Below the pieces are notes generated by a model. The model made no database searches and had not been told where the DNA came from. It saw only the letters and a program-made list of their open reading frames with translations. Below are positions 3,022 to 33,726 of a DNA stretch of 35,563 nt, in pieces. Source of the stretch: a virus (Duplodnaviria; Caudoviricetes); the IMG/VR virus record IMGVR_UViG_3300011338_000058, positions 1-35,563 of that record. One strand, written 5' to 3'. Numbering within the stretch: position 1 is the first letter of the stretch; every line of letters begins with the position of its first letter. The translations under genes were made by a program, and so were the position numbers.

Positions 3022-3336
3022 ATGGAAAAACGATTTTTTGATGCAAGCCCCGAAAAAGGGATCACGCGCACTTGGCACTACAACGATGAGACTGATGAGG
3101 CAACGATTCAGACAACTCAGGATATGACTGCTGTCATTGAGGCCAACAAGCGCGACTTTGCTGCTGTGGACAACAAGGCGAACTGGAAAGGCGAGTGGCA
3201 TCATGTTGCCAGCATTCCTGAGTCGGTTTACTTTCAGTTGAAGGCAGAGGGCAAGCTGGATGATCAGGCTTACATGAAGAAATGGCTCAACGATTTTGAC
3301 AATAGATTTTTTAGAGTGAGGCCAGGTAAGGTATGA
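3022..3336 (+). CDS. Hypothetical phage protein
   Basis: 104 aa with HVASIP..KKWLND..N..FR motif, in the post-capsid position. Confidence 0.75.
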   Translation: MEKRFFDASPEKGITRTWHYNDETDEATIQTTQDMTAVIEANKRDFAAVDNKANWKGEWHHVASIPESVYFQLKAEGKLDDQAYMKKWLNDFDNRFFRVRPGKV

Positions 3337-3986
3337 ACTACATCGCAGTCTGCACGCCAGCGCGTGACATGGTCCACACCAATTACACATATTGCATGGT
3401 CAACATGGTTGCGTACCACACGCTCAACACCACTGACGCTGTCAGCCTCAAGATACTGCAAGGCACACTGATTCAGAATCAGCGTGCTGACTTGTGCCTT
3501 GACGCCATGCGTGAGGGGTGCAGCCATATCCTGTTTATCGACTCTGACATGACATTCCCACAAGACATGATCCAGCGGCTGCTGGCGCATGATGTGGACA
3601 TTGTGGCGGCCAACTGCGCTCGCAGACGTATGCCAACAGGACCAACCGCGCAGAACTATGACGAGAATGGCAAGCGTAAGGCTGTTTATACGATGCCCGA
3701 ATCATCAGGGCTTGAAGAAATCGGTTCTGTCGGTACTGGCGTCATGCTGATCAAGCGTGGTGTCTTTGAGGGTATGACTGAACCTTGGTTCGATATGCCT
3801 TGGCAGACTGGCACTCGCGGCTATATGGGAGAAGATGTCTTCTTTTGTAAAAAGGCGCAGGAGCTTGGCTTTAAAGTGTATATTGACCATGATGTCTCGA
3901 AAGAGATCGGACACATTGGCACATTTGAATTCAGACACGATCACACTTGGATCGTCAAAGAAGAGATGGAAAAAGAGGCAGTCTGA
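3333..3986 (+). CDS. GT-A fold (GT2-like) glycosyltransferase
   Basis: HILFIDSD (DxD motif), GTGVMLIKRGVF, GEDVFFC and a C-terminal GH motif. Confidence 0.8.
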   Translation: MNYIAVCTPARDMVHTNYTYCMVNMVAYHTLNTTDAVSLKILQGTLIQNQRADLCLDAMREGCSHILFIDSDMTFPQDMIQRLLAHDVDIVAANCARRRMPTGPTAQNYDENGKRKAVYTMPESSGLEEIGSVGTGVMLIKRGVFEGMTEPWFDMPWQTGTRGYMGEDVFFCKKAQELGFKVYIDHDVSKEIGHIGTFEFRHDHTWIVKEEMEKEAV

Positions 3987-23282: not shown

Positions 23283-23510
23283 TTATTTAGAACGGCGAGT
23301 GAAAAGTGCCAAAGCACTTTCAAAGGGTAAGTTTTTCTCAACATAGCGCCAAGTCTTGCTCATGCCGCCATGAACTTTGCCGTTATAGTTTTCACACAGT
23401 TTGTACACCGCATAGGTGCAGTCATCTGCATCAGCAGACAAACCAGTGTGAACGGCAAACAACCCATACTGAACGCCGTTTTTGTTTGTTTTGATTTCGA
23501 CTGCTTTCAT
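23283..23510 (-). CDS. First gene of the leftward early operon, hypothetical
   Basis: 75 aa, AGGGG RBS, directly downstream of the leftward promoter. Confidence 0.75.
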   Translation of the reverse strand: MKAVEIKTNKNGVQYGLFAVHTGLSADADDCTYAVYKLCENYNGKVHGGMSKTWRYVEKNLPFESALALFTRRSK

Positions 23511-23540
23511 TCTGTACCCCTGTTTGCTGTTGATGGATGA

Positions 23541-23568
23541 ATCATATCAGCTTTGATGAAGTCGTCAA
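23541..23568 (-). promoter_or_regulatory. Leftward sigma70 promoter with overlapping palindromic operator candidate
   Basis: Minus strand TTGACG-16 bp-TATGAT with an extended TGn -10. Palindrome TTGATG-aagt-CGTCAA at 23553-23568. Confidence 0.75.
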
Positions 23569-23620
23569 CAACTATTTTATTTACCCTACAAAGTAGTCAA
23601 CTATTATTCCTGTAAACTTA

Positions 23621-23693
23621 ACAACGGCGGTCTTTTTGGGTTCTACCGCCAGTTGCCTTTTAGGGGGTCAGCGTGAGTTGATCCCCTTTTTTT
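23621..23693 (+). ncRNA. Candidate small RNA of about 70 nt (two hairpins)
   Basis: TAAACT -10-like element at 23613-23618, hairpin CAAC-GGCGGT..ACCGCC-A-GTTG, then an intrinsic terminator. No ORF. Confidence 0.5.
23662..23693 (+). terminator. Intrinsic terminator
   Basis: AGGGGGTCAGC-GTGA-GTTGATCCCCT stem with GNRA loop, followed by a T-run. Confidence 0.8.
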
Positions 23694-23702
23694 CATTTAA
23701 AC

Positions 23703-23732
23703 TTGACGCTTTCCACAAAACATGGTTAACAT
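23703..23732 (+). promoter_or_regulatory. Rightward sigma70 promoter, probably giving a leaderless mRNA
   Basis: TTGACG-18 bp-TAACAT. The expected start site falls on ATG 23740, which has no SD sequence. Confidence 0.65.
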
Positions 23733-23739
23733 TCTACAC

Positions 23740-23979
23740 ATGAAAACGATCTCACAGGAAGCACTCCAAGCAATACGCCATAAGGTTGAGGCCGCTGGCT
23801 ACAAGATGAGCGATGTCTGCCGAGTCGCACAAATCGATCAGGCGCAGGTATCCCGCTGGATGTCGGGGACCACAGAGCCACTATACGGCAGTGTGATCCG
23901 CTTGGATCAGGCAGCCGATGCCTTGGTGTCAGCTCGCCTCACAGTCCTCAACAAAGCCATGGAAGACGCCGTCAAATGA
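23740..23979 (+). CDS. Cro/XRE-like HTH regulator
   Basis: MSDVCRVAQIDQAQVSRWMSGTTEP HTH. 79 aa, no peptidase domain. Confidence 0.85.
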   Translation: MKTISQEALQAIRHKVEAAGYKMSDVCRVAQIDQAQVSRWMSGTTEPLYGSVIRLDQAADALVSARLTVLNKAMEDAVK

Positions 23980-26493: not shown

Positions 26494-28569
26494 ATGCAAG
26501 CAGAACAAATAGCCAAGAGCTTGGGCAACGCCAAGAAAGCAAACGGCCAATGGGTAGCGTCATGCCCAGTACCGACTCACGGCAAAGGTAACGGCGACAA
26601 GAATCCAAGTCTCAGCGTTCACATTGATGATGAGGGCAAGCCACTCTTTCACTGCCATGGTGGGTGCAGCCAAGAGTCAGTATTCCAAACCATCAGGGAT
26701 AGGAACTTATTACCCGAGCTGGAAGAGCGTCCCGACCCACTCGCCAACATCAAGCCAATGCCAAAGGTGGAATTCCAGCAGGAATGGCAGTACCAAGACG
26801 AGGACCGCGTCACAGTGTTTGTGAAGCACAGGATGCGCGTGGGCAACACCGGCAAGACATACAGGCTCTACAAAATAGATCAAAGTGGCAAGCGATACCC
26901 GACATTGGGTGACGCACGCATCGTCCCCTACAAGCTACCCGAGCTGCTGGACGCGAAGACAGCGGGGCGCATCATCTACTTGGCCGAGGGCGAAAAGGCG
27001 GTGGACGCCTTGATGAGCTTGGGCGTGGCGGCCACAACGAGTCACAGTGGCGCAGGAAACTGGCCGCCAGAGAATACAGAGTACTTTGCTGGCGCCAATG
27101 TAGTGATCCTGCCCGACAACGATCTGAGTGGTTGGGCATACGCCCAACGCGCCGCAGCCGCCATCCTGCCCATCGCCAAGAACCTCAAGGTAGTTGACCT
27201 CGGGCTGCAAGGCCAAGGCGATGACGCATATGAGTTCATTGAGGCAGGCGGTGGACGCGCAGAGCTTGCAGCGTTGGTCAAGGCAGCGCCAAAGATCATC
27301 AGTGTGGATGATGTAACGATACCCGAAAGGCTACAGGCGATTAAAGAAACAGCGCCAGCAGTTGATGCCAATGCAACAAACCTACTAGCCACCATTGATA
27401 TAGCCAAAGAGTTTGCGCCTGATCCAGCACCGCCAAAACAGGAAGAGAAACCCAAACCACTGAAGACGATCAAGATTGAGTCTTGGGATGAGATACAGGA
27501 TGAGCCAGTCGAGTGGCTGATTGAGGGTGTCATACCGGTTGGGAGCTTCACAGCACTGTATGGACCGCCTGGCTCATTTAAGTCATTCATAGCCTTGGAC
27601 ATTGCCGAGGCCATCGCCACAGGGCGCAGCTGGATGGGTAAGCCTGTAAACAAGACAGGCGCGGTGCTGTACTTGGCCGGCGAGGGCTTTGGCGGCATAG
27701 GCGCACGCATCAAAGCCTGCAAGATGCACCATCAGACTGAAGACGGCGCACCCATATACATAGTCAGGCATCAACTCAACCTGAGATCAAGCGCCGAGGA
27801 CTTCAACGCCTTGATGATGGCAGTGGTCATGCTGGTGGAGCAGACAGGCATGGAGTTCAGCCTAGCCATTGTGGATACCTTAGCAAGAGCATTTGGCGGC
27901 GGTAATGAGAACAGCTCAGAAGACATGGGCGCATTTATCACCGCCATGGGAAAAGTGCAGGAGTTCCTCAACTGCGCCTTGATGGTGCTGCACCACAGCG
28001 GAAAGGACGCCGCCAAAGGACTGCGCGGACATTCCTCACTGCTTGGCGCAGTAGATACAGAGCTGGAATTGTTGCGCTTTGACGAGCAGATGAAAGGAAT
28101 CCTCACCATCAGCAAGCAAAAGGACGGCGCAGATAACGAGCGCTTTGGCTTTGAGATGGTCGAGGTAGAGATCAGGCCGGCAGGCTTGGGATTGAGCGAT
28201 CCAGTGGTCAGTTTGGCGGTGCAGGCCAGCGATGAGGCGACAAGAATGCTGTCTGAGAAGTCATCTAAGAAGTCAAAAACATCGAAAAAAATGACCCCAA
28301 ATCAGCGGTTGGCGCTGTCTTCTTTAGAGACTGTCATAAAAGAAAAAGGAACTCCAAAGTTCTCAGATGGTCAGATGCGTACAGCAGTCGATTTGAACGA
28401 TTGGAGAGCTGAATTTCACGCCAAAAAAGGTGTTGATAAGGACTCTGAAGGAGCATTTAGAAAGGCTTGGAAAGATGCCAAAGATTGGTTACAAAATGAA
28501 AAAATGGGTGGAATTAGAGGACAACTGGTTTGGTTGCAATTTAAAGACCATTCGGAAAATGAGTTCTGA
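26494..28569 (+). CDS. Primase-helicase fusion (Zn-binding, TOPRIM, RecA-like AAA_25 helicase, putative C-terminal wHTH)
   Basis: CP..H..D.NPSLS..CHGGC, EGEKAVD, PDND..G, Walker A GPPGSFKS, Walker B IVDT, HHSGKD...GLRGHS. Confidence 0.92.
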   Translation: MQAEQIAKSLGNAKKANGQWVASCPVPTHGKGNGDKNPSLSVHIDDEGKPLFHCHGGCSQESVFQTIRDRNLLPELEERPDPLANIKPMPKVEFQQEWQYQDEDRVTVFVKHRMRVGNTGKTYRLYKIDQSGKRYPTLGDARIVPYKLPELLDAKTAGRIIYLAEGEKAVDALMSLGVAATTSHSGAGNWPPENTEYFAGANVVILPDNDLSGWAYAQRAAAAILPIAKNLKVVDLGLQGQGDDAYEFIEAGGGRAELAALVKAAPKIISVDDVTIPERLQAIKETAPAVDANATNLLATIDIAKEFAPDPAPPKQEEKPKPLKTIKIESWDEIQDEPVEWLIEGVIPVGSFTALYGPPGSFKSFIALDIAEAIATGRSWMGKPVNKTGAVLYLAGEGFGGIGARIKACKMHHQTEDGAPIYIVRHQLNLRSSAEDFNALMMAVVMLVEQTGMEFSLAIVDTLARAFGGGNENSSEDMGAFITAMGKVQEFLNCALMVLHHSGKDAAKGLRGHSSLLGAVDTELELLRFDEQMKGILTISKQKDGADNERFGFEMVEVEIRPAGLGLSDPVVSLAVQASDEATRMLSEKSSKKSKTSKKMTPNQRLALSSLETVIKEKGTPKFSDGQMRTAVDLNDWRAEFHAKKGVDKDSEGAFRKAWKDAKDWLQNEKMGGIRGQLVWLQFKDHSENEF

Positions 28570-28572
28570 ATG

Positions 28573-28588
28573 CTGTGTATTTATACAG
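28573..28588. promoter_or_regulatory. LexA (SOS) box
   Basis: CTGT-GTATTTAT-ACAG. The spacer matches the ATATATAT consensus at 6 of 8 positions, and the site is intergenic. Confidence 0.7.
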
Positions 28589-28708
28589 CGTTACGTTACT
28601 TTCGTTACAAAAGTAACGCACTAGTAACGTACAGGGCGTTACGTTACATATCGAGAGTCTAGGAACTCGATGATATGTAACGCCTGTAACGGCAAAACAA
28701 GGAGTAAC
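28589..28708. repeat. Iteron cluster, putative phage replication origin
   Basis: Ten GTTAC/GTAAC pentamers (5 per strand, 9 as CGTTAC hexamers) in two inverted arrays, right after the primase-helicase gene. Confidence 0.75.
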
Positions 28709-28713
28709 AGAAG

Positions 28714-29394
28714 ATGGCAACAAAGAGAACAGCAAACAAGCATCCAGTGGTGGAGACACCAAGCCCAAAGGCAGACGCTTGGACGATTCATGTGCAATCG
28801 AAGTTGGTCGAGTTGGAGGCAGTCAAAGCCGCCAGCGATAGGAAATGGGGAGAAAACAGACTGTGTACTTTGGTAAGCAGTGAGGTTAGAGAGAAATTCT
28901 GGACTCAGAACGGCAGATTGCATCAAGCGATGGCGGCCAAAGATTGGGCGAAGTTTGATTCCAGCTTGGCAGGGATGATCAGGGCATATGGCGTGCTGGA
29001 CAAACTAGCGACAGATGATGGGTGTGAGCCAGCGTCATCAATACCGAGGATTGAGTGGGAGATGCAAAATGGTCAGACCATGGTGATTGTCAGAAGTGTC
29101 AACGAAGCTGTGGCAATACAGACTCAGCGTCAGGACTTGTCGAATCACCACATTTGGTCGATGCAGGAACTTGAAGCATTGCTGGCTGACGAGCGTATGC
29201 AGGCAGTTATCAAGATCAATGCGCTTGTGCCAACAGCGCAGCTCACCAGCTTTAAGCCAACCTCAGAGTTCAAGCCTGGCGGTGCAACCGGCTTTGATGA
29301 CTTTGAAAATGACTTAACTTTCAACGACAATGACACCATGGAATACAAGTTCAATTCCGAACAGGCAGAAAGGTTCAAGAATGGATCAAATTAA
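28714..29394 (+). CDS. Hypothetical protein
   Basis: 226 aa, AAGGAG RBS, KWG..RL..LV motif. Confidence 0.8.
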   Translation: MATKRTANKHPVVETPSPKADAWTIHVQSKLVELEAVKAASDRKWGENRLCTLVSSEVREKFWTQNGRLHQAMAAKDWAKFDSSLAGMIRAYGVLDKLATDDGCEPASSIPRIEWEMQNGQTMVIVRSVNEAVAIQTQRQDLSNHHIWSMQELEALLADERMQAVIKINALVPTAQLTSFKPTSEFKPGGATGFDDFENDLTFNDNDTMEYKFNSEQAERFKNGSN

Positions 29395-29470
29395 GCGATT
29401 GGCGGCACTTATCCGCGAAAAGGTACTGGACATCGTCCAGCGCGTTAAAACGGCTTTAGGGAGGGTCTGA
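29381..29470 (+). CDS. Amphipathic basic microprotein (29 aa)
   Basis: MDQIKRLAALIREKVLDIVQRVKTALGRV, AAGG RBS, fills the gap up to terS. Confidence 0.45.
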   Translation: MDQIKRLAALIREKVLDIVQRVKTALGRV

Positions 29471-29472
29471 GC

Positions 29473-29901
29473 GTGGCTGGACGACCTAAATTCAGACAGG
29501 ACATGGAATTGCTGGAAGAACTGCCAGACGACATGATCGTGTCAATGCTTGAGGCAGGCAAGTCGCAGACGATGATCTGCTACGAGCTTGGCATTGGGCG
29601 CAGGGCGCTCGAGCAATGGATCGAAGATACCGATCCCTCTATAATTGCGCGTGCGCGCGCGAAAGCCGCCGATAAACTCGCGGTGGAGACTATGACCATC
29701 GCAGACAGCATGGCGGACAGCAATCCGCAGCGCGATGTCCAGCGCATCCGCACTCGCCAGTGGCTGGCCGAAAGGTGGGATCAGAAAACTTATGGTCTAC
29801 AAAAGGCGCAGCAAATCAACATCAACGTGCAGGACTTACGCATGGCGGCACTGCGCCATGTCGAGGTTATCGATGACTTATCCACAGAAAAAAGCGCATG
29901 A
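29473..29901 (+). CDS. terS: Terminase small subunit
   Basis: GTG start with GGAGGG RBS. GRP start, HTH, ARAR..AAD.LA.E...IAD and RI.TR.WLA motifs. Upstream of terL. Confidence 0.75.
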   Translation: MAGRPKFRQDMELLEELPDDMIVSMLEAGKSQTMICYELGIGRRALEQWIEDTDPSIIARARAKAADKLAVETMTIADSMADSNPQRDVQRIRTRQWLAERWDQKTYGLQKAQQININVQDLRMAALRHVEVIDDLSTEKSA

Positions 29902-29974
29902 TGCACACATTGACCTGTGGACAACTGCAAATTGCCTGTTTATTGGGCGAAATCGCTGAAGTTATCCACAATAA

Positions 29975-30002
29975 AGTTAACATAATAGTGATTGTATTAA
30001 AC
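29975..30002 (-). other. dif-like XerC/XerD recombination site
   Basis: Minus strand GTTTAATACAA-TCACTA-TTATGTTAACT in 11-6-11 layout. The XerD arm matches TTATGTTAAAT at 10 of 11 positions. Confidence 0.7.
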
Positions 30003-30035
30003 CGATTATGTAAGCCTCATGTAAGAAAGCATATG

Positions 30036-30048
30036 AATCAATGACTTA
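30036..30048 (+). promoter_or_regulatory. IHF binding site
   Basis: AATCAA-TGAC-TTA is an exact match to WATCAANNNNTTR. Confidence 0.65.
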
Positions 30049-30186
30049 CAAGCGCATCGACCTGTGGATAACTTTTCAGCCGTTTACTGGCCTCCGGTGG
30101 CTGGCTGCGGCCTGCGCGATGACCCCCCCTTTGCTCGCGGCGGCGGGGGCGGCAGCAGTTGCACCTAAACACATATCGCCACCACG

Positions 30187-31665
30187 ATGACCGCACCCCC
30201 TACCCCTACTCCCCCCACCGCGCAAAAGCGCCTCCCGAAAAAAAATTCCAATGATTTGGTGACGAATAACCCATTTGTTGAATTCGTCAAGCTCTACAAG
30301 AATAACCCTGTCCTGTTTGTTAAGGAAGTCCTTAACACCGAGCCTGATGCGTGGCAGATAGAGTTCCTCAATCACATCGCCGCCGGCCACCGCCGCATCT
30401 CTGTACGTTCAGGCCATGGCGTAGGCAAATCGACAGCGTCAGCATGGGCGATGATTTGGTACTTGTTCCTGCGCTTTCCTGTCAAGGTGGTGGTGACTGC
30501 GCCAACCAGCTCACAGCTCTATGACGCCTTGTTTGCTGAAGTCAAGCGTTGGGTTAAGGTGCTGCCACCTATGCTGGCTGACCAGTTGGAGGTGAAGCAG
30601 GACCGCATCGAGGTGAAAGACGCCAACGAAGAGGCGTTCATCTCTGCCAGGACCAGCCGCGCAGAGCAGCCCGAAGCGTTACAGGGTGTCCACAGCGACA
30701 ACGTGATGCTGGTGGCTGATGAGGCATCCGGCGTGCCTGAAAAGGTCTTTGAGGCGGCATCAGGATCAATGTCGGGGCATAACGCTGTGACGTTGTTGCT
30801 TGGCAACCCTGTGCGTTCTAGCGGTTTCTTTTACGACACCCATAATCGATTGGCGGGTGACTGGGTGACGATGCGCGTGAGCTGCGCCGACTCGCCCCGA
30901 GTCAGTGAGGCTTACATTGAGGAGATGAAGTCGAGGTATGGCGAGGAAAGCAACGCCTACCGCATCCGCGTCTTGGGTGAATTCCCCAGAAGTGACGAAG
31001 ATACTGTGATTCCTATGGAGTTGCTGGATTTGGCGATGAATCGTGATGTTGAGGCGAGTCCTTATGCGCCACTGGTGTGGGGATTGGACGTTGCGAGGTT
31101 TGGGTCTGACAGGTCGGCGCTGTGCAAGAGGCGTGGAAATGCTGTGATTGAGCCGATAAAGACTTGGAAAAACTTAGATTTGATGCAGTTGACTGGTGCT
31201 GTGGTGGCTGAGTTTGAGGCGTTGCCGCCAAGCGACAGGCCAGAAGAGATACTGGTGGACAGCATTGGGTTGGGCGCTGGCGTGGTGGATCGGTTGAAAG
31301 AGTTGGGGCTGCCAGCGCGTGGTATCAATGTGTCTGAGAGTCCTGCCATGGGCGGTACTTACAGGAACTTGAAGGCCGAGCTTTGGTACAAGGCCAAGGC
31401 GTGGTTGGAGCAGCGCGACTGCCGGTTGCCTAAAGATGAGCTGCTGGTGGCTGAGTTGGCGACTGTGAGGTATATGTTTACGAGCAACGGCAAGATTCAG
31501 ATTGAGAGCAAGGATGACATCAAGAAGCGTGGTTTGGCGAGTCCTGACAAGGCTGATGCGTTTTGCTTGACCTTTGCGTCAGACGCTGTGATTGGCATGA
31601 TGGGGTCGAAGTCCAGTACGAAGTGGAATCAGCCGTTGAAAAGAAACCTATCAAGGGTTGCATAA
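30187..31665 (+). CDS. terL: Terminase large subunit
   Basis: Walker A SGHGVGKS, Walker B LVADEA, LLGNP, nuclease motifs GLDVARFGSD and SPDKADA. Confidence 0.95.
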   Translation: MTAPPTPTPPTAQKRLPKKNSNDLVTNNPFVEFVKLYKNNPVLFVKEVLNTEPDAWQIEFLNHIAAGHRRISVRSGHGVGKSTASAWAMIWYLFLRFPVKVVVTAPTSSQLYDALFAEVKRWVKVLPPMLADQLEVKQDRIEVKDANEEAFISARTSRAEQPEALQGVHSDNVMLVADEASGVPEKVFEAASGSMSGHNAVTLLLGNPVRSSGFFYDTHNRLAGDWVTMRVSCADSPRVSEAYIEEMKSRYGEESNAYRIRVLGEFPRSDEDTVIPMELLDLAMNRDVEASPYAPLVWGLDVARFGSDRSALCKRRGNAVIEPIKTWKNLDLMQLTGAVVAEFEALPPSDRPEEILVDSIGLGAGVVDRLKELGLPARGINVSESPAMGGTYRNLKAELWYKAKAWLEQRDCRLPKDELLVAELATVRYMFTSNGKIQIESKDDIKKRGLASPDKADAFCLTFASDAVIGMMGSKSSTKWNQPLKRNLSRVA

Positions 31666-31863: not shown

Positions 31864-32387
31864 TGGCTACCTTAAAGCGCACCATGGATCAAGCCATGGA
31901 TCAAGAGGCTGGCTACCAAGGCGCTGGCGCCAGTTGCCCTGCGCCTACTCAGGACATCACGCTGAATTTGAAGAATCGCGCCAAGGCGATCACTTCAGCG
32001 GGTTATGGTCCTGAGAATCCAGCACTGCCAAACAATGCGTTTTGGTCAAAGAAAGCTGACCAGTGGGATGTTTCTACCGATGACGCCAAGCAGAGCTTAT
32101 GCGGTAACTGTGCCGCGTTCAATGTTGGCGACAAGATCAAGCAGTGCATTGCTGATGGCATTGGCCGAGAGGCTGACCCATGGGGAACTATCAAGCTGGC
32201 TGATTTGGGTTACTGCGAGATATTCGACTTCAAGTGCGCCGCCAGCAGGACTTGTGATGCTTGGGTAGTTGGCGGTCCTAATGAGGGCGATGGCGAATCA
32301 GAGGGTGGCGACTATGAGGAAGAGAGCGATTCTGATGATGGCGAATCCTTACTCACAATCAAGATTGGAGTCAAAGATGAAGACTAA
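31863..32387 (+). CDS. Cys-rich protein with HiPIP-like ligand spacing and acidic tail
   Basis: CGNCAAF..GYCEIFDFKCAASRTCDAW. Confidence 0.65.
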   Translation: MATLKRTMDQAMDQEAGYQGAGASCPAPTQDITLNLKNRAKAITSAGYGPENPALPNNAFWSKKADQWDVSTDDAKQSLCGNCAAFNVGDKIKQCIADGIGREADPWGTIKLADLGYCEIFDFKCAASRTCDAWVVGGPNEGDGESEGGDYEEESDSDDGESLLTIKIGVKDED

Positions 32388-32538
32388 GCCTGGCCTCTAC
32401 GCCAACATCCACGCCAAGCAAAAACGCATAGCGGCTGGCTCTGGCGAGAAGATGAACAAGGTCGGCTCTAAGGCCGCGCCATCCGCTGCTGACTTCAAAC
32501 TGGCGGCCAAGACTGCCAAGAAGAAGCCTAAGAAGTGA
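32377..32538 (+). CDS. Small Lys/Ala-rich protein
   Basis: MKTKPGLYANIHAKQKRI..., GGAG RBS, 53 aa. Confidence 0.75.
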   Translation: MKTKPGLYANIHAKQKRIAAGSGEKMNKVGSKAAPSAADFKLAAKTAKKKPKK

Positions 32539-33233
32539 TCTCACCGATATGCGTCAGCACAGTACACGGCAAAGGTTTGCGGGTGATGCTCACAAGCATT
32601 GCCGAGTATTGTCCCGAAGTGCCTGTCTATTTGCGCGGACCCGAGTCCATTATTGGCGGCTTTGACGCCGACCTCAAGGTATTTGGTGCGCCGCACAATT
32701 TCGGTGAAGATTACAACGACATCATGGATCGTGCCTTTGCTGATGGCTTTGAGTCTGTGATCTGCGCCAATGATGACATTGTGCTGACCCCCACCAGCTA
32801 CCGGCATCTGATGGAAGATGTGGCGCAGTTAAAGGCTGAGACTGGCGAACCTGTCGGTTGGGTATCAGCACGCTGTGACGCGGCGCGTCCTGTGCAGAAT
32901 GTGCGGAGCAATCCCTTTGACCAGCAGCTTGAATACTTCAAGTACCCCTATGAAGACGCCATCATGCCAATGGAGTGTCTAAGCCCGATATTTGCTTGGA
33001 TTGGCAGAGATGCGTGGGAGGTGCAGAAGTTCCCGCCATTGAATTGGTACTCTGATGATGTGCATTGCGAAGACTTGCGTGCCGCGGGTTTCCACCATTA
33101 TTTGAGCCGGTCTTATGTCCATCATGTTGGCAGCCAAACGATTGGCATGGACGGCAATAAGCTGATTCAGCAGGCAGTGCCTTGGTTGCGAAAGAACAGG
33201 CCGAAATATGCAGCAGACTGGTTTGGTTCTTAA
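32535..33233 (+). CDS. GT-A fold (GT2-like) glycosyltransferase
   Basis: NFG..YN, ICANDDIVL, WYSDD..C and YVHHVGSQT motifs. Confidence 0.8.
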   Translation: MISPICVSTVHGKGLRVMLTSIAEYCPEVPVYLRGPESIIGGFDADLKVFGAPHNFGEDYNDIMDRAFADGFESVICANDDIVLTPTSYRHLMEDVAQLKAETGEPVGWVSARCDAARPVQNVRSNPFDQQLEYFKYPYEDAIMPMECLSPIFAWIGRDAWEVQKFPPLNWYSDDVHCEDLRAAGFHHYLSRSYVHHVGSQTIGMDGNKLIQQAVPWLRKNRPKYAADWFGS

Positions 33234-33726
33234 TCTCGGTTCAGGCAAAGACCACCGCGCTGATTGCGTGAATGCTGACATTCGCGCAGATGTTGGCGCC
33301 GATTGGGTTGTCGATATTTGCAAGCCATTGGACACCGACAGGCGCTTTGACAAGATCATTGCCAATGATGTGTTGGAGCATTTGCCCGATTTGGTGGCAG
33401 GCATGACCAACTGCCGCGATTTGCTGATGGATGGTGGCGAGATGCACATCCATGTGCCTTATGACTTGAGCTATGGCGCGTGGCAAGACCCGACCCATGT
33501 GAGAGCATTCAACGAAAAGTCTTGGGTTTATTACTGTGAGTGGGCGTGGTATTTGGGATGGATGGGCAGCAGATTTGAGTTGGTGCATTTGGAGATGCGT
33601 CTCAGCGAGTATGGTGCGAGTCTAAAATTGCCACAAGACGAGGTGATGCGTATGCCTCGCGCAGTTGACTCTATGTATGTCGTTCTAAAGAAAGTCCCAT
33701 ATGAAAACACCCGCGTGGCAGCGTAG
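33208..33726 (+). CDS. Class I SAM-dependent methyltransferase
   Basis: LNLGSG, VNADI, A.DVLEH, L..GG...I.VP and DPTHVR motifs. Confidence 0.85.
   Translation: MQQTGLVLNLGSGKDHRADCVNADIRADVGADWVVDICKPLDTDRRFDKIIANDVLEHLPDLVAGMTNCRDLLMDGGEMHIHVPYDLSYGAWQDPTHVRAFNEKSWVYYCEWAWYLGWMGSRFELVHLEMRLSEYGASLKLPQDEVMRMPRAVDSMYVVLKKVPYENTRVAA

Follow-up and report, generated by a model that had tools for sequence, protein, structure and literature searches.

How does a short-tailed phage that encodes no recognizable recombinase or DNA polymerase close its genome into a circle, and why does the DNA just upstream of its large terminase gene carry apparent binding sites for host proteins? The locus that raises these questions lies in IMG/VR virus record IMGVR_UViG_3300011338_000058 (Duplodnaviria; Caudoviricetes), whose 35,563 nucleotides were analysed at full length and are called the window below. 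An earlier note on this DNA had pointed to a LexA box beside an iteron origin, followed by four DnaA boxes, a dif-like site and an integration host factor (IHF) site, and had proposed that they form one system by which the phage persists as a plasmid or as a dif-integrated prophage. We find that the DnaA boxes and the dif-like site belong to a conserved cassette between terS and terL (the small and large terminase genes) that likely lies inside the direct terminal repeat of virion DNA; from the sequence evidence we lean, with little more than even confidence, toward the reading that the host recombinases XerC and XerD (XerCD) would recombine the two terminal copies and so circularize the genome or keep it monomeric. 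To our knowledge, formation of the first circle in short-terminal-repeat phages that lack a recombinase or DNA polymerase is poorly known.

Motifs upstream of terL and their match to a host family

The window comprises an entire phage genome of 35,436 bp and an assembly overlap of 127 nt between its ends; IMG/VR annotates the record with 'direct terminal repeats' and as 100% complete. Every motif that the earlier note had claimed is present at the position it gave:

28573..28588: LexA-type SOS box (CTGT-N8-ACAG), 3 nt past the primase-helicase stop; partly conserved
28589..28709: iteron array with a central palindrome at 28652-28669; GTTAC/GTAAC repeats clustered at 28590-28708
29473..29901, plus strand: terS (phrog_1482, PF20901); its final codons hold DnaA box 1
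29727..30309: contig depth raised about twofold; the direct terminal repeat is likely within this stretch
29878..29886, plus strand: DnaA box 1, perfect; column conservation 0.998 (50 sequences)
29916..29924, minus strand: DnaA box 2, one mismatch; conservation 0.92
29962..29970, plus strand: DnaA box 3, perfect, 4 bp from the XerD arm; conservation 0.91
29975..30002, minus strand: dif-like XerC/XerD site, a 28-mer; XerC arm 29992-30002, 6-bp spacer 29986-29991, XerD arm 29975-29985
30036..30048, plus strand: IHF-type site, on the XerC side of the dif-like site
30063..30071, minus strand: DnaA box 4, perfect; conservation 0.85
30123..30149, plus strand: C-run/G-run hairpin-like motif; in phage phiM5 its counterpart falls within the annotated left repeat, right by the inner edge, and it is present in phages C72C1 and MW202879
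30187..31665, plus strand: terL (phrog_2, E 2e-48), 55% identical to phiM5 TerL

The starting motifs were the E. coli dif, LexA and IHF consensus sequences; the DnaA box and TGTATA were borne out by papers, and significance was judged against shuffles of the window (100 or 300). The DnaA cluster far exceeds chance expectation, as does the dif-like site, whereas neither the LexA nor the IHF motif rises above it by itself. The only perfect DnaA boxes in the genome are boxes 1, 3 and 4, a number reached in 0 of 100 shuffles, and four boxes within 200 bp occur in 0 of 300. The dif-like 28-mer reads GTTTAATACAA TCACTA TTATGTTAACT on the minus strand, and the pattern fitted to it has 0 matches in 300 shuffles. 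The LexA pattern is present twice in the window, and 20 of 100 shuffles have it at least twice. The IHF consensus at 30036-30048 is unique in the genome, yet at chance level (68 of 100 shuffles), so support for this site comes from its conservation.

The arms of the dif-like site follow the dif of one host family, which bears out the earlier claim that the site is of host type. The commonest variant among relatives, ATTTAACACGA TGTCCA TTATGTTAAGT, has arms that match 21 of 22 positions of the dif of genome G463; the window's own arms match that dif at 18 of 22 positions and the Rhodoferax dif at 17 of 22. In one Burkholderiales family the XerC arm ends in AC[AG]A in 70 of 73 sites (sites were found in 70 of 121 genomes), versus 0 of 87 in a neighbouring Burkholderiales family (sites found in 87 of 151 genomes). 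One genome of the family with the AC[AG]A arm (G518) holds, letter for letter, the Rhodoferax ferrireducens dif tabulated in PMC2731167; because this exact match lies in the family whose arms agree, the host family is likely Comamonadaceae-like. The host was not established from bins of metagenome-assembled genomes (MAGs): L084 and L085 are short phage contigs, the dif-like site of G001 itself is of the CATAA type and does not fit, and the fitting site of G002 lies on a 2.2-kb contig only.

The spacer is not of the host type. Among 198 distinct cassettes we count 24 different spacers, with TGTCCA in 104 and TGTATA in 0; an IHF-like motif is present in 147. TGTATA is canonical for single chromosomes, and co-resident, non-homologous replicons carry divergent spacers (PMC2533119). 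Searched across IMG/VR with a 6-nt spacer, the two-arm pattern is found in about 1100 stretches, about sevenfold more than the approximately 160 found with a 4-nt control spacer. As a separate observation, a 155-kb viral contig carries near its start an E. coli-like dif (L431:276-303) with five DnaA boxes on the XerC side.

The earlier description of a complete genome without a recognizable integrase, cleavable repressor, ParA/B or DNA polymerase is upheld: PHROGs and Pfam scans found no integrase, repressor, ParA/B or DNA polymerase gene among the 57 open reading frames (ORFs), and six-frame searches of the genome for PF00589, PF00239, PF00717 and PF13614 were negative. The primase-helicase does match a PHROG labelled 'DNA polymerase/primase', over its helicase half only. 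The clade agrees with the window: a search of 30 IMG/VR records, of which 19 have a completeness of 90% or more, found PF00589 in none, ParA (PF13614) is found in 0 of 18 records, and no S24 repressor was found.

Conservation and spread of the cassette

The close clade is represented by 80 IMG/VR relatives (TerL 85-99%), 66 of which include 420 bp upstream of terL (49 distinct). The XerD arm is kept in all 66, as are three or more DnaA boxes when one mismatch is tolerated, and 47 of the 66 have a strict IHF match. The motif columns are conserved at 0.85-1.0 versus 0.74 for other intergenic columns; box 1 lies inside terS codons and is 0.998 conserved although adjacent third positions vary, and the spacer is without indels in the aligned close relatives shown. 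The LexA box behaves differently, so that the expected co-conservation of four motif types stands for the DnaA boxes and XerD arm and is partial for the LexA box. Of 57 close relatives, 35 have an exact copy and 41 a copy with at most one mismatch, which leaves 16 without it; among 23 distant relatives 4 have the exact box, and a control window inside the primase gene has it in none. No consensus promoter overlaps it. The LexA box is probably real but optional.

The iteron cluster holds 10 of the genome's 36 GTTAC/GTAAC copies and is likely the origin for the primase-helicase, itself likely the phage's own initiator. The iteron unit differs between relatives, and bacterial genomes (L087, L094) also have arrays of this kind after primase-helicases that are only distantly related, so that the iteron origin is nothing out of the ordinary; with the LexA box it is a separate, partly conserved module. 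The palindrome at 28652-28669 is retained in 56 of the 80 relatives even where the iteron unit changes.

Beyond the close clade, we fetched 120 of the approximately 1100 two-arm stretches and used the 80 with long flanks to identify neighbouring genes. At least two DnaA boxes occur at recurrent offsets in 88 of the 120; the offsets are fixed (-109/-98/-75/-60/-19/-13) and adjoin an AT-rich core and the IHF site. The cassette lies within 600 bp of a terminase gene in 59 of the 80 long-flank loci, a figure obtained with terminase queries derived in part from the loci being counted, and it is upstream of terL in 53 of 53 loci with a terL match. Identity of the neighbouring TerL proteins to that of the window runs from about 30% to 96%, some having no match to it, and the cassette is found in both orientations. 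In L684 the primase (80%) and the 226-aa gene (84%) resemble those of the window, the TerL is of a different type, and the cassette is inverted (83% identity over 143 bp).

The L684 locus bears on an alternative in which the motifs are recognized by terminase (pac) or resemble host sites by chance. They do lie where packaging signals lie, and the IHF and LexA motifs alone are at chance level; however, L684 keeps the cassette in inverted form next to a terminase of another type, the arms follow the dif type of one host family, and the 6-nt spacing is about sevenfold enriched. We regard this alternative as very improbable.

With the canonical CATAA arm pattern, 25 of 80 loci adjoin terminase genes; these include none with TGTATA and are mostly without DnaA boxes, and all 10 TGTATA loci are away from terminase genes. 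Immediately past terS, the GenBank phages C72C1 and MJing1 show a dif-like site together with an IHF-like motif and C/G runs (the MJing1 terS is assigned by position, not by search). MJing1 also encodes an integrase, which breaks the strict exclusion of integrase and dif-like site that we had considered. C72C1, on which we found no publication, has a dif-like site without DnaA boxes, and the cultured Methylophilales podovirus Venkman (MT375522.1, L608) has no dif match, and its record carries DnaA boxes and an IHF-like motif at either end (52, 365, 38614). Across these cases the dif-like site, DnaA boxes and LexA box come out as separable parts; with the patchy LexA box and the integrase of MJing1, this speaks against the earlier idea of a single four-factor system.

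The closest GenBank relative, MW202879.1 (TerL 69%), has no dif-like site by our search pattern; after terS it has a hairpin, one short ORF and a serine resolvase gene (PF00239, E 3.5e-27; L482:966-1634) near the position of the window's cassette, and two DnaA boxes (3059, 3179) follow its primase gene instead. A resolvase just after terS and the hairpin, although a single case, fits a resolution role for the slot.

These phages bear on a second alternative, in which DnaA, IHF and XerCD bind at the ends without productive recombination and anchor or shield the incoming DNA, serve to prime the repeat's duplication as DNA is packaged, or titrate away host DnaA and XerCD and so stall host replication and division. 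DnaA-box clusters at the ends of phages without a dif match would suit such a role (Venkman, and the terminal repeat of T5 as described in bioRxiv 10.1101/866236), as would our failure to find an activator of Xer (unpolarized FtsK-orienting polar sequences (KOPS) and no FtsK-gamma domain, see below). However, a pure decoy gains nothing by avoiding the host spacer, yet 0 of 198 cassettes carry TGTATA, and MW202879 has a resolvase gene in the same slot. A single-strand priming hairpin formed by boxes 1 and 2 was also considered and rejected, since it shows no covariation and the pair is broken in 2 of 10 sequences. We therefore doubt that binding without recombination accounts for the cassette.

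Several observations on individual loci are recorded here. The MJing1 site (OQ540923.1, L738:1497-1524, minus strand) has the XerD arm TTATGGAAAGC, which resembles alphaproteobacterial rows of the dif table; the phage is labelled a Microcystis phage, and this host label may deserve a check. Between cassette and terL, several relatives have insertions of large ORFs (470-830 aa) that vary and match families little or not at all (L254:1573-3621, L253:2160-3785, L297:3278-5224, L316:4254-5666, L307:2424-3827 and L255:268-2772). Loci L647 and L656 are on one 67-kb metagenome contig, with two cassette copies about 35.3 kb apart at equal gene offsets, that is, a phage dimer or an assembly artefact. 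In L241, L268, L386, L391 and L399 the dif-like site adjoins a lambda-O-like replication gene, 0.4-1.6 kb upstream of terS. Many matches to a DnaA box plus a XerD arm in low-GC contigs lie inside ORFs and were treated as chance, and BLASTN of the cassette against cultured phages gave chance-level matches only.

The probable terminal repeat and the fate of the genome

The earlier note missed where the cassette most likely lies in virion DNA. With depth compared at 98% likeness (at 90% strains are mixed), one exact contig that covers 29727-30309 has a depth of 77 in run X2, versus 35-51 for the other listed pieces, and the exact contig in X5 has 130.5 versus 57-72; in X4 the bin 29828-30111 has 80.7 versus 39-46, and X9 is too shallow. 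Sinorhizobium phage phiM5 (MF074189), which is LUZ24/SU10-like with TerL 55% and capsid 50% identical and the same terS-hairpin-terL layout, has an annotated 357-bp terminal repeat over the 3' part of the ORF before terL that ends just past the C-run/G-run motif. Unlike the window phage, phiM5 has an integrase and a DNA polymerase and has neither a dif-like site nor a perfect DnaA box. The raised depth, together with the phiM5 repeat at the homologous position, makes it likely that the cassette is inside a direct terminal repeat. Contig ends of relatives, considered as a map of the termini, were dropped because they are scattered over 29700-30450 and biased by how the loci were found.

If XerCD binds and recombines the dif-like site, as its arms suggest, two direct copies with identical spacers at the ends of the linear genome would yield one unit-length circle, and the same site could later resolve dimers and keep the replicating circles monomeric. 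The orientation of the site would be immaterial to recombination between the ends, which fits the inverted cassettes. By analogy with second chromosomes, the altered spacer may keep the phage from fusing with the host chromosome, and a non-host spacer would at least limit such fusion. Replication of the circle by the primase-helicase would follow, starting at the iteron origin and using the host polymerase; the LexA box would belong to this replication module and be optional. In the weakest step, the ends would probably be bent, bridged or primed with the help of the DnaA boxes and IHF site. Candidate helpers are above all the phased boxes for DnaA on the XerD side, which could equally be an origin, a T5-like anchor or a DnaA sink.

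A number of results weigh against terminal recombination by XerCD. The depths are one figure per assembled contig and not a copy number; the runs were flagged as possible sources of the window and, given equal word shares, probably represent two samples. In X2 and X5 the depth summed for bin 32384-32667 is raised too, and a co-occurring strain identical over 29727-30309 would mimic the raised depth. The patterns used to collect the cassettes fix several arm positions, which are invariant by construction. KOPS are balanced, with 77 directed toward and 74 away from the site in the 198 cassettes (the window has 2 in all), so a chromosomal-type, FtsK-controlled dif was rejected for want of KOPS polarity; a phage-encoded FtsK-gamma domain was found in 0 of 5 genomes, and no activator of XerD on the incoming DNA is evident from sequence. 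Among relatives by capsid or terminase, 4 of 5 in one set have neither an integrase nor a dif match, as is also true of P26218, HTVC010P, HTVC024P and Venkman and of the terminase region of DSL-LC05; the site is thus not required for this morphotype. Finally, the TGT of the commonest spacer adjoins the XerC arm, as in the attP arrangement of VGJphi.

This last resemblance raises a third alternative, that the phage is a mobile element exploiting Xer for its integration (IMEX) and enters the host chromosomal dif by a XerC-first exchange, the mechanism described for VGJphi (PMC5357621). Both arms are host-like, the host's TGT beside the XerC arm recurs in the commonest spacer, and there is no integrase. 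However, a junction pattern that combines the host spacer with the phage IHF flank has 0 matches in JGI metagenomes. With any spacer allowed, the pattern is found in about 130 stretches; in the 120 that were fetched TGTATA occurs in 0 and phage marks are on the XerD side in 115, and of the others 3 have less than 100 bp on the XerD side and 2 are chance-like; a recognizable host flank occurs in none of the 120. These patterns covered the junction with the IHF flank, the opposite junction (without an IHF site) being outside them. No integrated close relative was found in GTDB, in which sampling of the hosts is thin, integration at this site would split terS from terL, and MJing1 has such a site together with its own integrase. 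The dif-integrated prophage proposed earlier is not supported by these searches, and we consider it quite improbable.

The other lifestyle proposed earlier was a plasmid prophage, that is, a circle that is initiated by host DnaA at the cassette, resolved from dimers by XerCD and switched to primase-helicase replication when the SOS response acts through the LexA box. The DnaA boxes at fixed offsets beside an AT-rich core and an IHF site, the absence of an integrase or S24 repressor, and a LexA box well above control in the close clade (35 of 57 versus 0) agree with such a state, and a non-host spacer would fit a plasmid too. We found no positive evidence for it: ParA is in 0 of 18 records and there is no ParB among the window's ORFs; the 72,556 PLSDB plasmids hold no close relative (best TerL about 40%, capsid about 33%); the best primase match in 401 genomes of the host-like family is 37-39%; and GTDB gave two close matches only, on MAG contigs of 7.8 kb and 13.4 kb, although freshwater hosts are under-sampled, mostly uncultured and represented mostly by MAGs, which lose episomes. 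In addition, 16 of 57 close relatives have no LexA box even when one mismatch is tolerated, and no consensus promoter lies over the box. A comparison with host oriC found the pattern in 0 of 4 genomes. A plasmid prophage is in our view unlikely.

Terminal recombination by host XerCD, the reading we prefer, can be taken further. In the freshwater clade, host DnaA and IHF might serve as accessory proteins that join the ends or fire the first round of replication; a large, abundant set of tailed phages without recombinases might close their genomes through XerCD sites in terminal repeats; and an FtsK-independent Xer pathway might operate, possibly with a quiet circle that persists until SOS induction. 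We offer these extensions as speculation to which we give limited credence.

Gene content, known systems and meaning

The phage is an SU10/LUZ24-like podovirus with SU10-type portal, capsid and adaptor proteins (PHROGs/Pfam scans); its capsid relatives include phiM5, Venkman and many Pseudomonas podoviruses. The replication block encodes a helix-turn-helix (HTH) protein, a RuvC-like resolvase, a Cas4-like exonuclease and the primase-helicase, and is followed by a 226-aa protein, terS and terL:

26494..28569, plus strand: primase-helicase, AAA_25/RepA-type helicase (PF13481, E 7e-40; phrog_239, DNA primase/helicase)
28714..29394, plus strand: conserved 226-aa protein between the origin and terS, with 428 homologues

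The 226-aa protein has no PDB match at E<=0.001 by sequence or fold and no Pfam, PHROG or Atlas match; its fold matches are uncultured-phage proteins, nearly all uncharacterized, and we dropped it as a known activator or repressor. A single small HTH protein is encoded at 23722-23979, preceded by a divergent early control region (23510-23722) that has no perfect LexA box; the left side yielded no CI-like gene. A glycosyltransferase-like gene (Anp1; 3333-3986) lies among the head genes, and a methyltransferase-like gene (33208-33726) precedes the portal gene. Sequencing runs that contain the phage DNA are labelled riverine, aquatic, aquaculture, estuary and freshwater.

By analogy, the site may work like the dif of a second replicon, or like P1 loxP with a borrowed enzyme. 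The Xer sites of secondary replicons and plasmids (V. cholerae dif2, ColE1 cer, pSC101 psi; PMC2533119, PMC5357621) share with it two 11-bp host-type arms, a 6-bp spacer other than TGTATA and likely self-self resolution by host XerCD; unlike them, it is on a tailed phage at the packaging end and has no polarized KOPS. The cer and psi sites have an accessory region of about 180 bp for PepA and ArgR/ArcA, whereas around the phage site the motifs seen are those for DnaA and IHF, with no search aimed at ArgR/ArcA boxes. Phage P1 circularizes through its terminal redundancy by Cre/loxP, so that in both cases a tyrosine-recombinase site acts, or in the window would act, on the phage's own genome; however, P1 encodes Cre, ParA/B and a plasmid replicon, and the window phage, without detectable counterparts, would borrow the host enzyme. 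Cre/loxP also unlinks sister copies of P1 (PMC7192630).

IMEX (CTXphi, VGJphi, TLCphi, the gonococcal genetic island, dif-type double-jelly-roll phages and gokushoviruses) likewise have a dif-like site and no recombinase of their own, but they integrate at the chromosomal dif, whereas we found no integrated copy or junction for the window's clade; the phages among them are non-tailed in the accounts on which we draw (PMC5357621, PMC12715192; PMC7062461, PMC9966536). The clade is set apart from phage-plasmids by the lack of a partition gene. The terminal repeat of T5 (iss region) also has conserved DnaA boxes in non-coding repeat DNA, unrelated to the phage origin, and the cluster has been proposed as an anchor; T5 differs in its 10-kb repeats and two-step injection, and the portion of the hypothesis paper used here mentions no dif site (bioRxiv 10.1101/866236).

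Chromosomal oriC and datA combine DnaA boxes with an IHF site. The cassette resembles them in its clustered DnaA boxes, IHF site and AT-rich DNA; unlike them, it has a dif-like site in the middle of the cluster and is 1.2-1.5 kb from the phage's iteron origin, and any origin activity of the cluster would be putative.

Open-access PMC and bioRxiv, searched by title or start of abstract, gave no report of tailed phages with dif sites where packaging ends lie, a scope that took in neither subscription journals nor bioRxiv supplements. What this analysis contributes is an arm match specific to one family and compared with a control family, a census of spacers, the module found inverted in L684, a resolvase gene in that slot in MW202879, and the elevated depth across the cassette. 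If terminal recombination by XerCD is true, xerC and xerD would be host factors for a very common group of aquatic phages, and a dif-like site in a viral contig would no longer imply integration. The arm sequence would then be a tag for host prediction, here toward a Comamonadaceae-like family, and a Xer reaction assisted by DnaA and IHF, if it occurs, would be a new mode of control.

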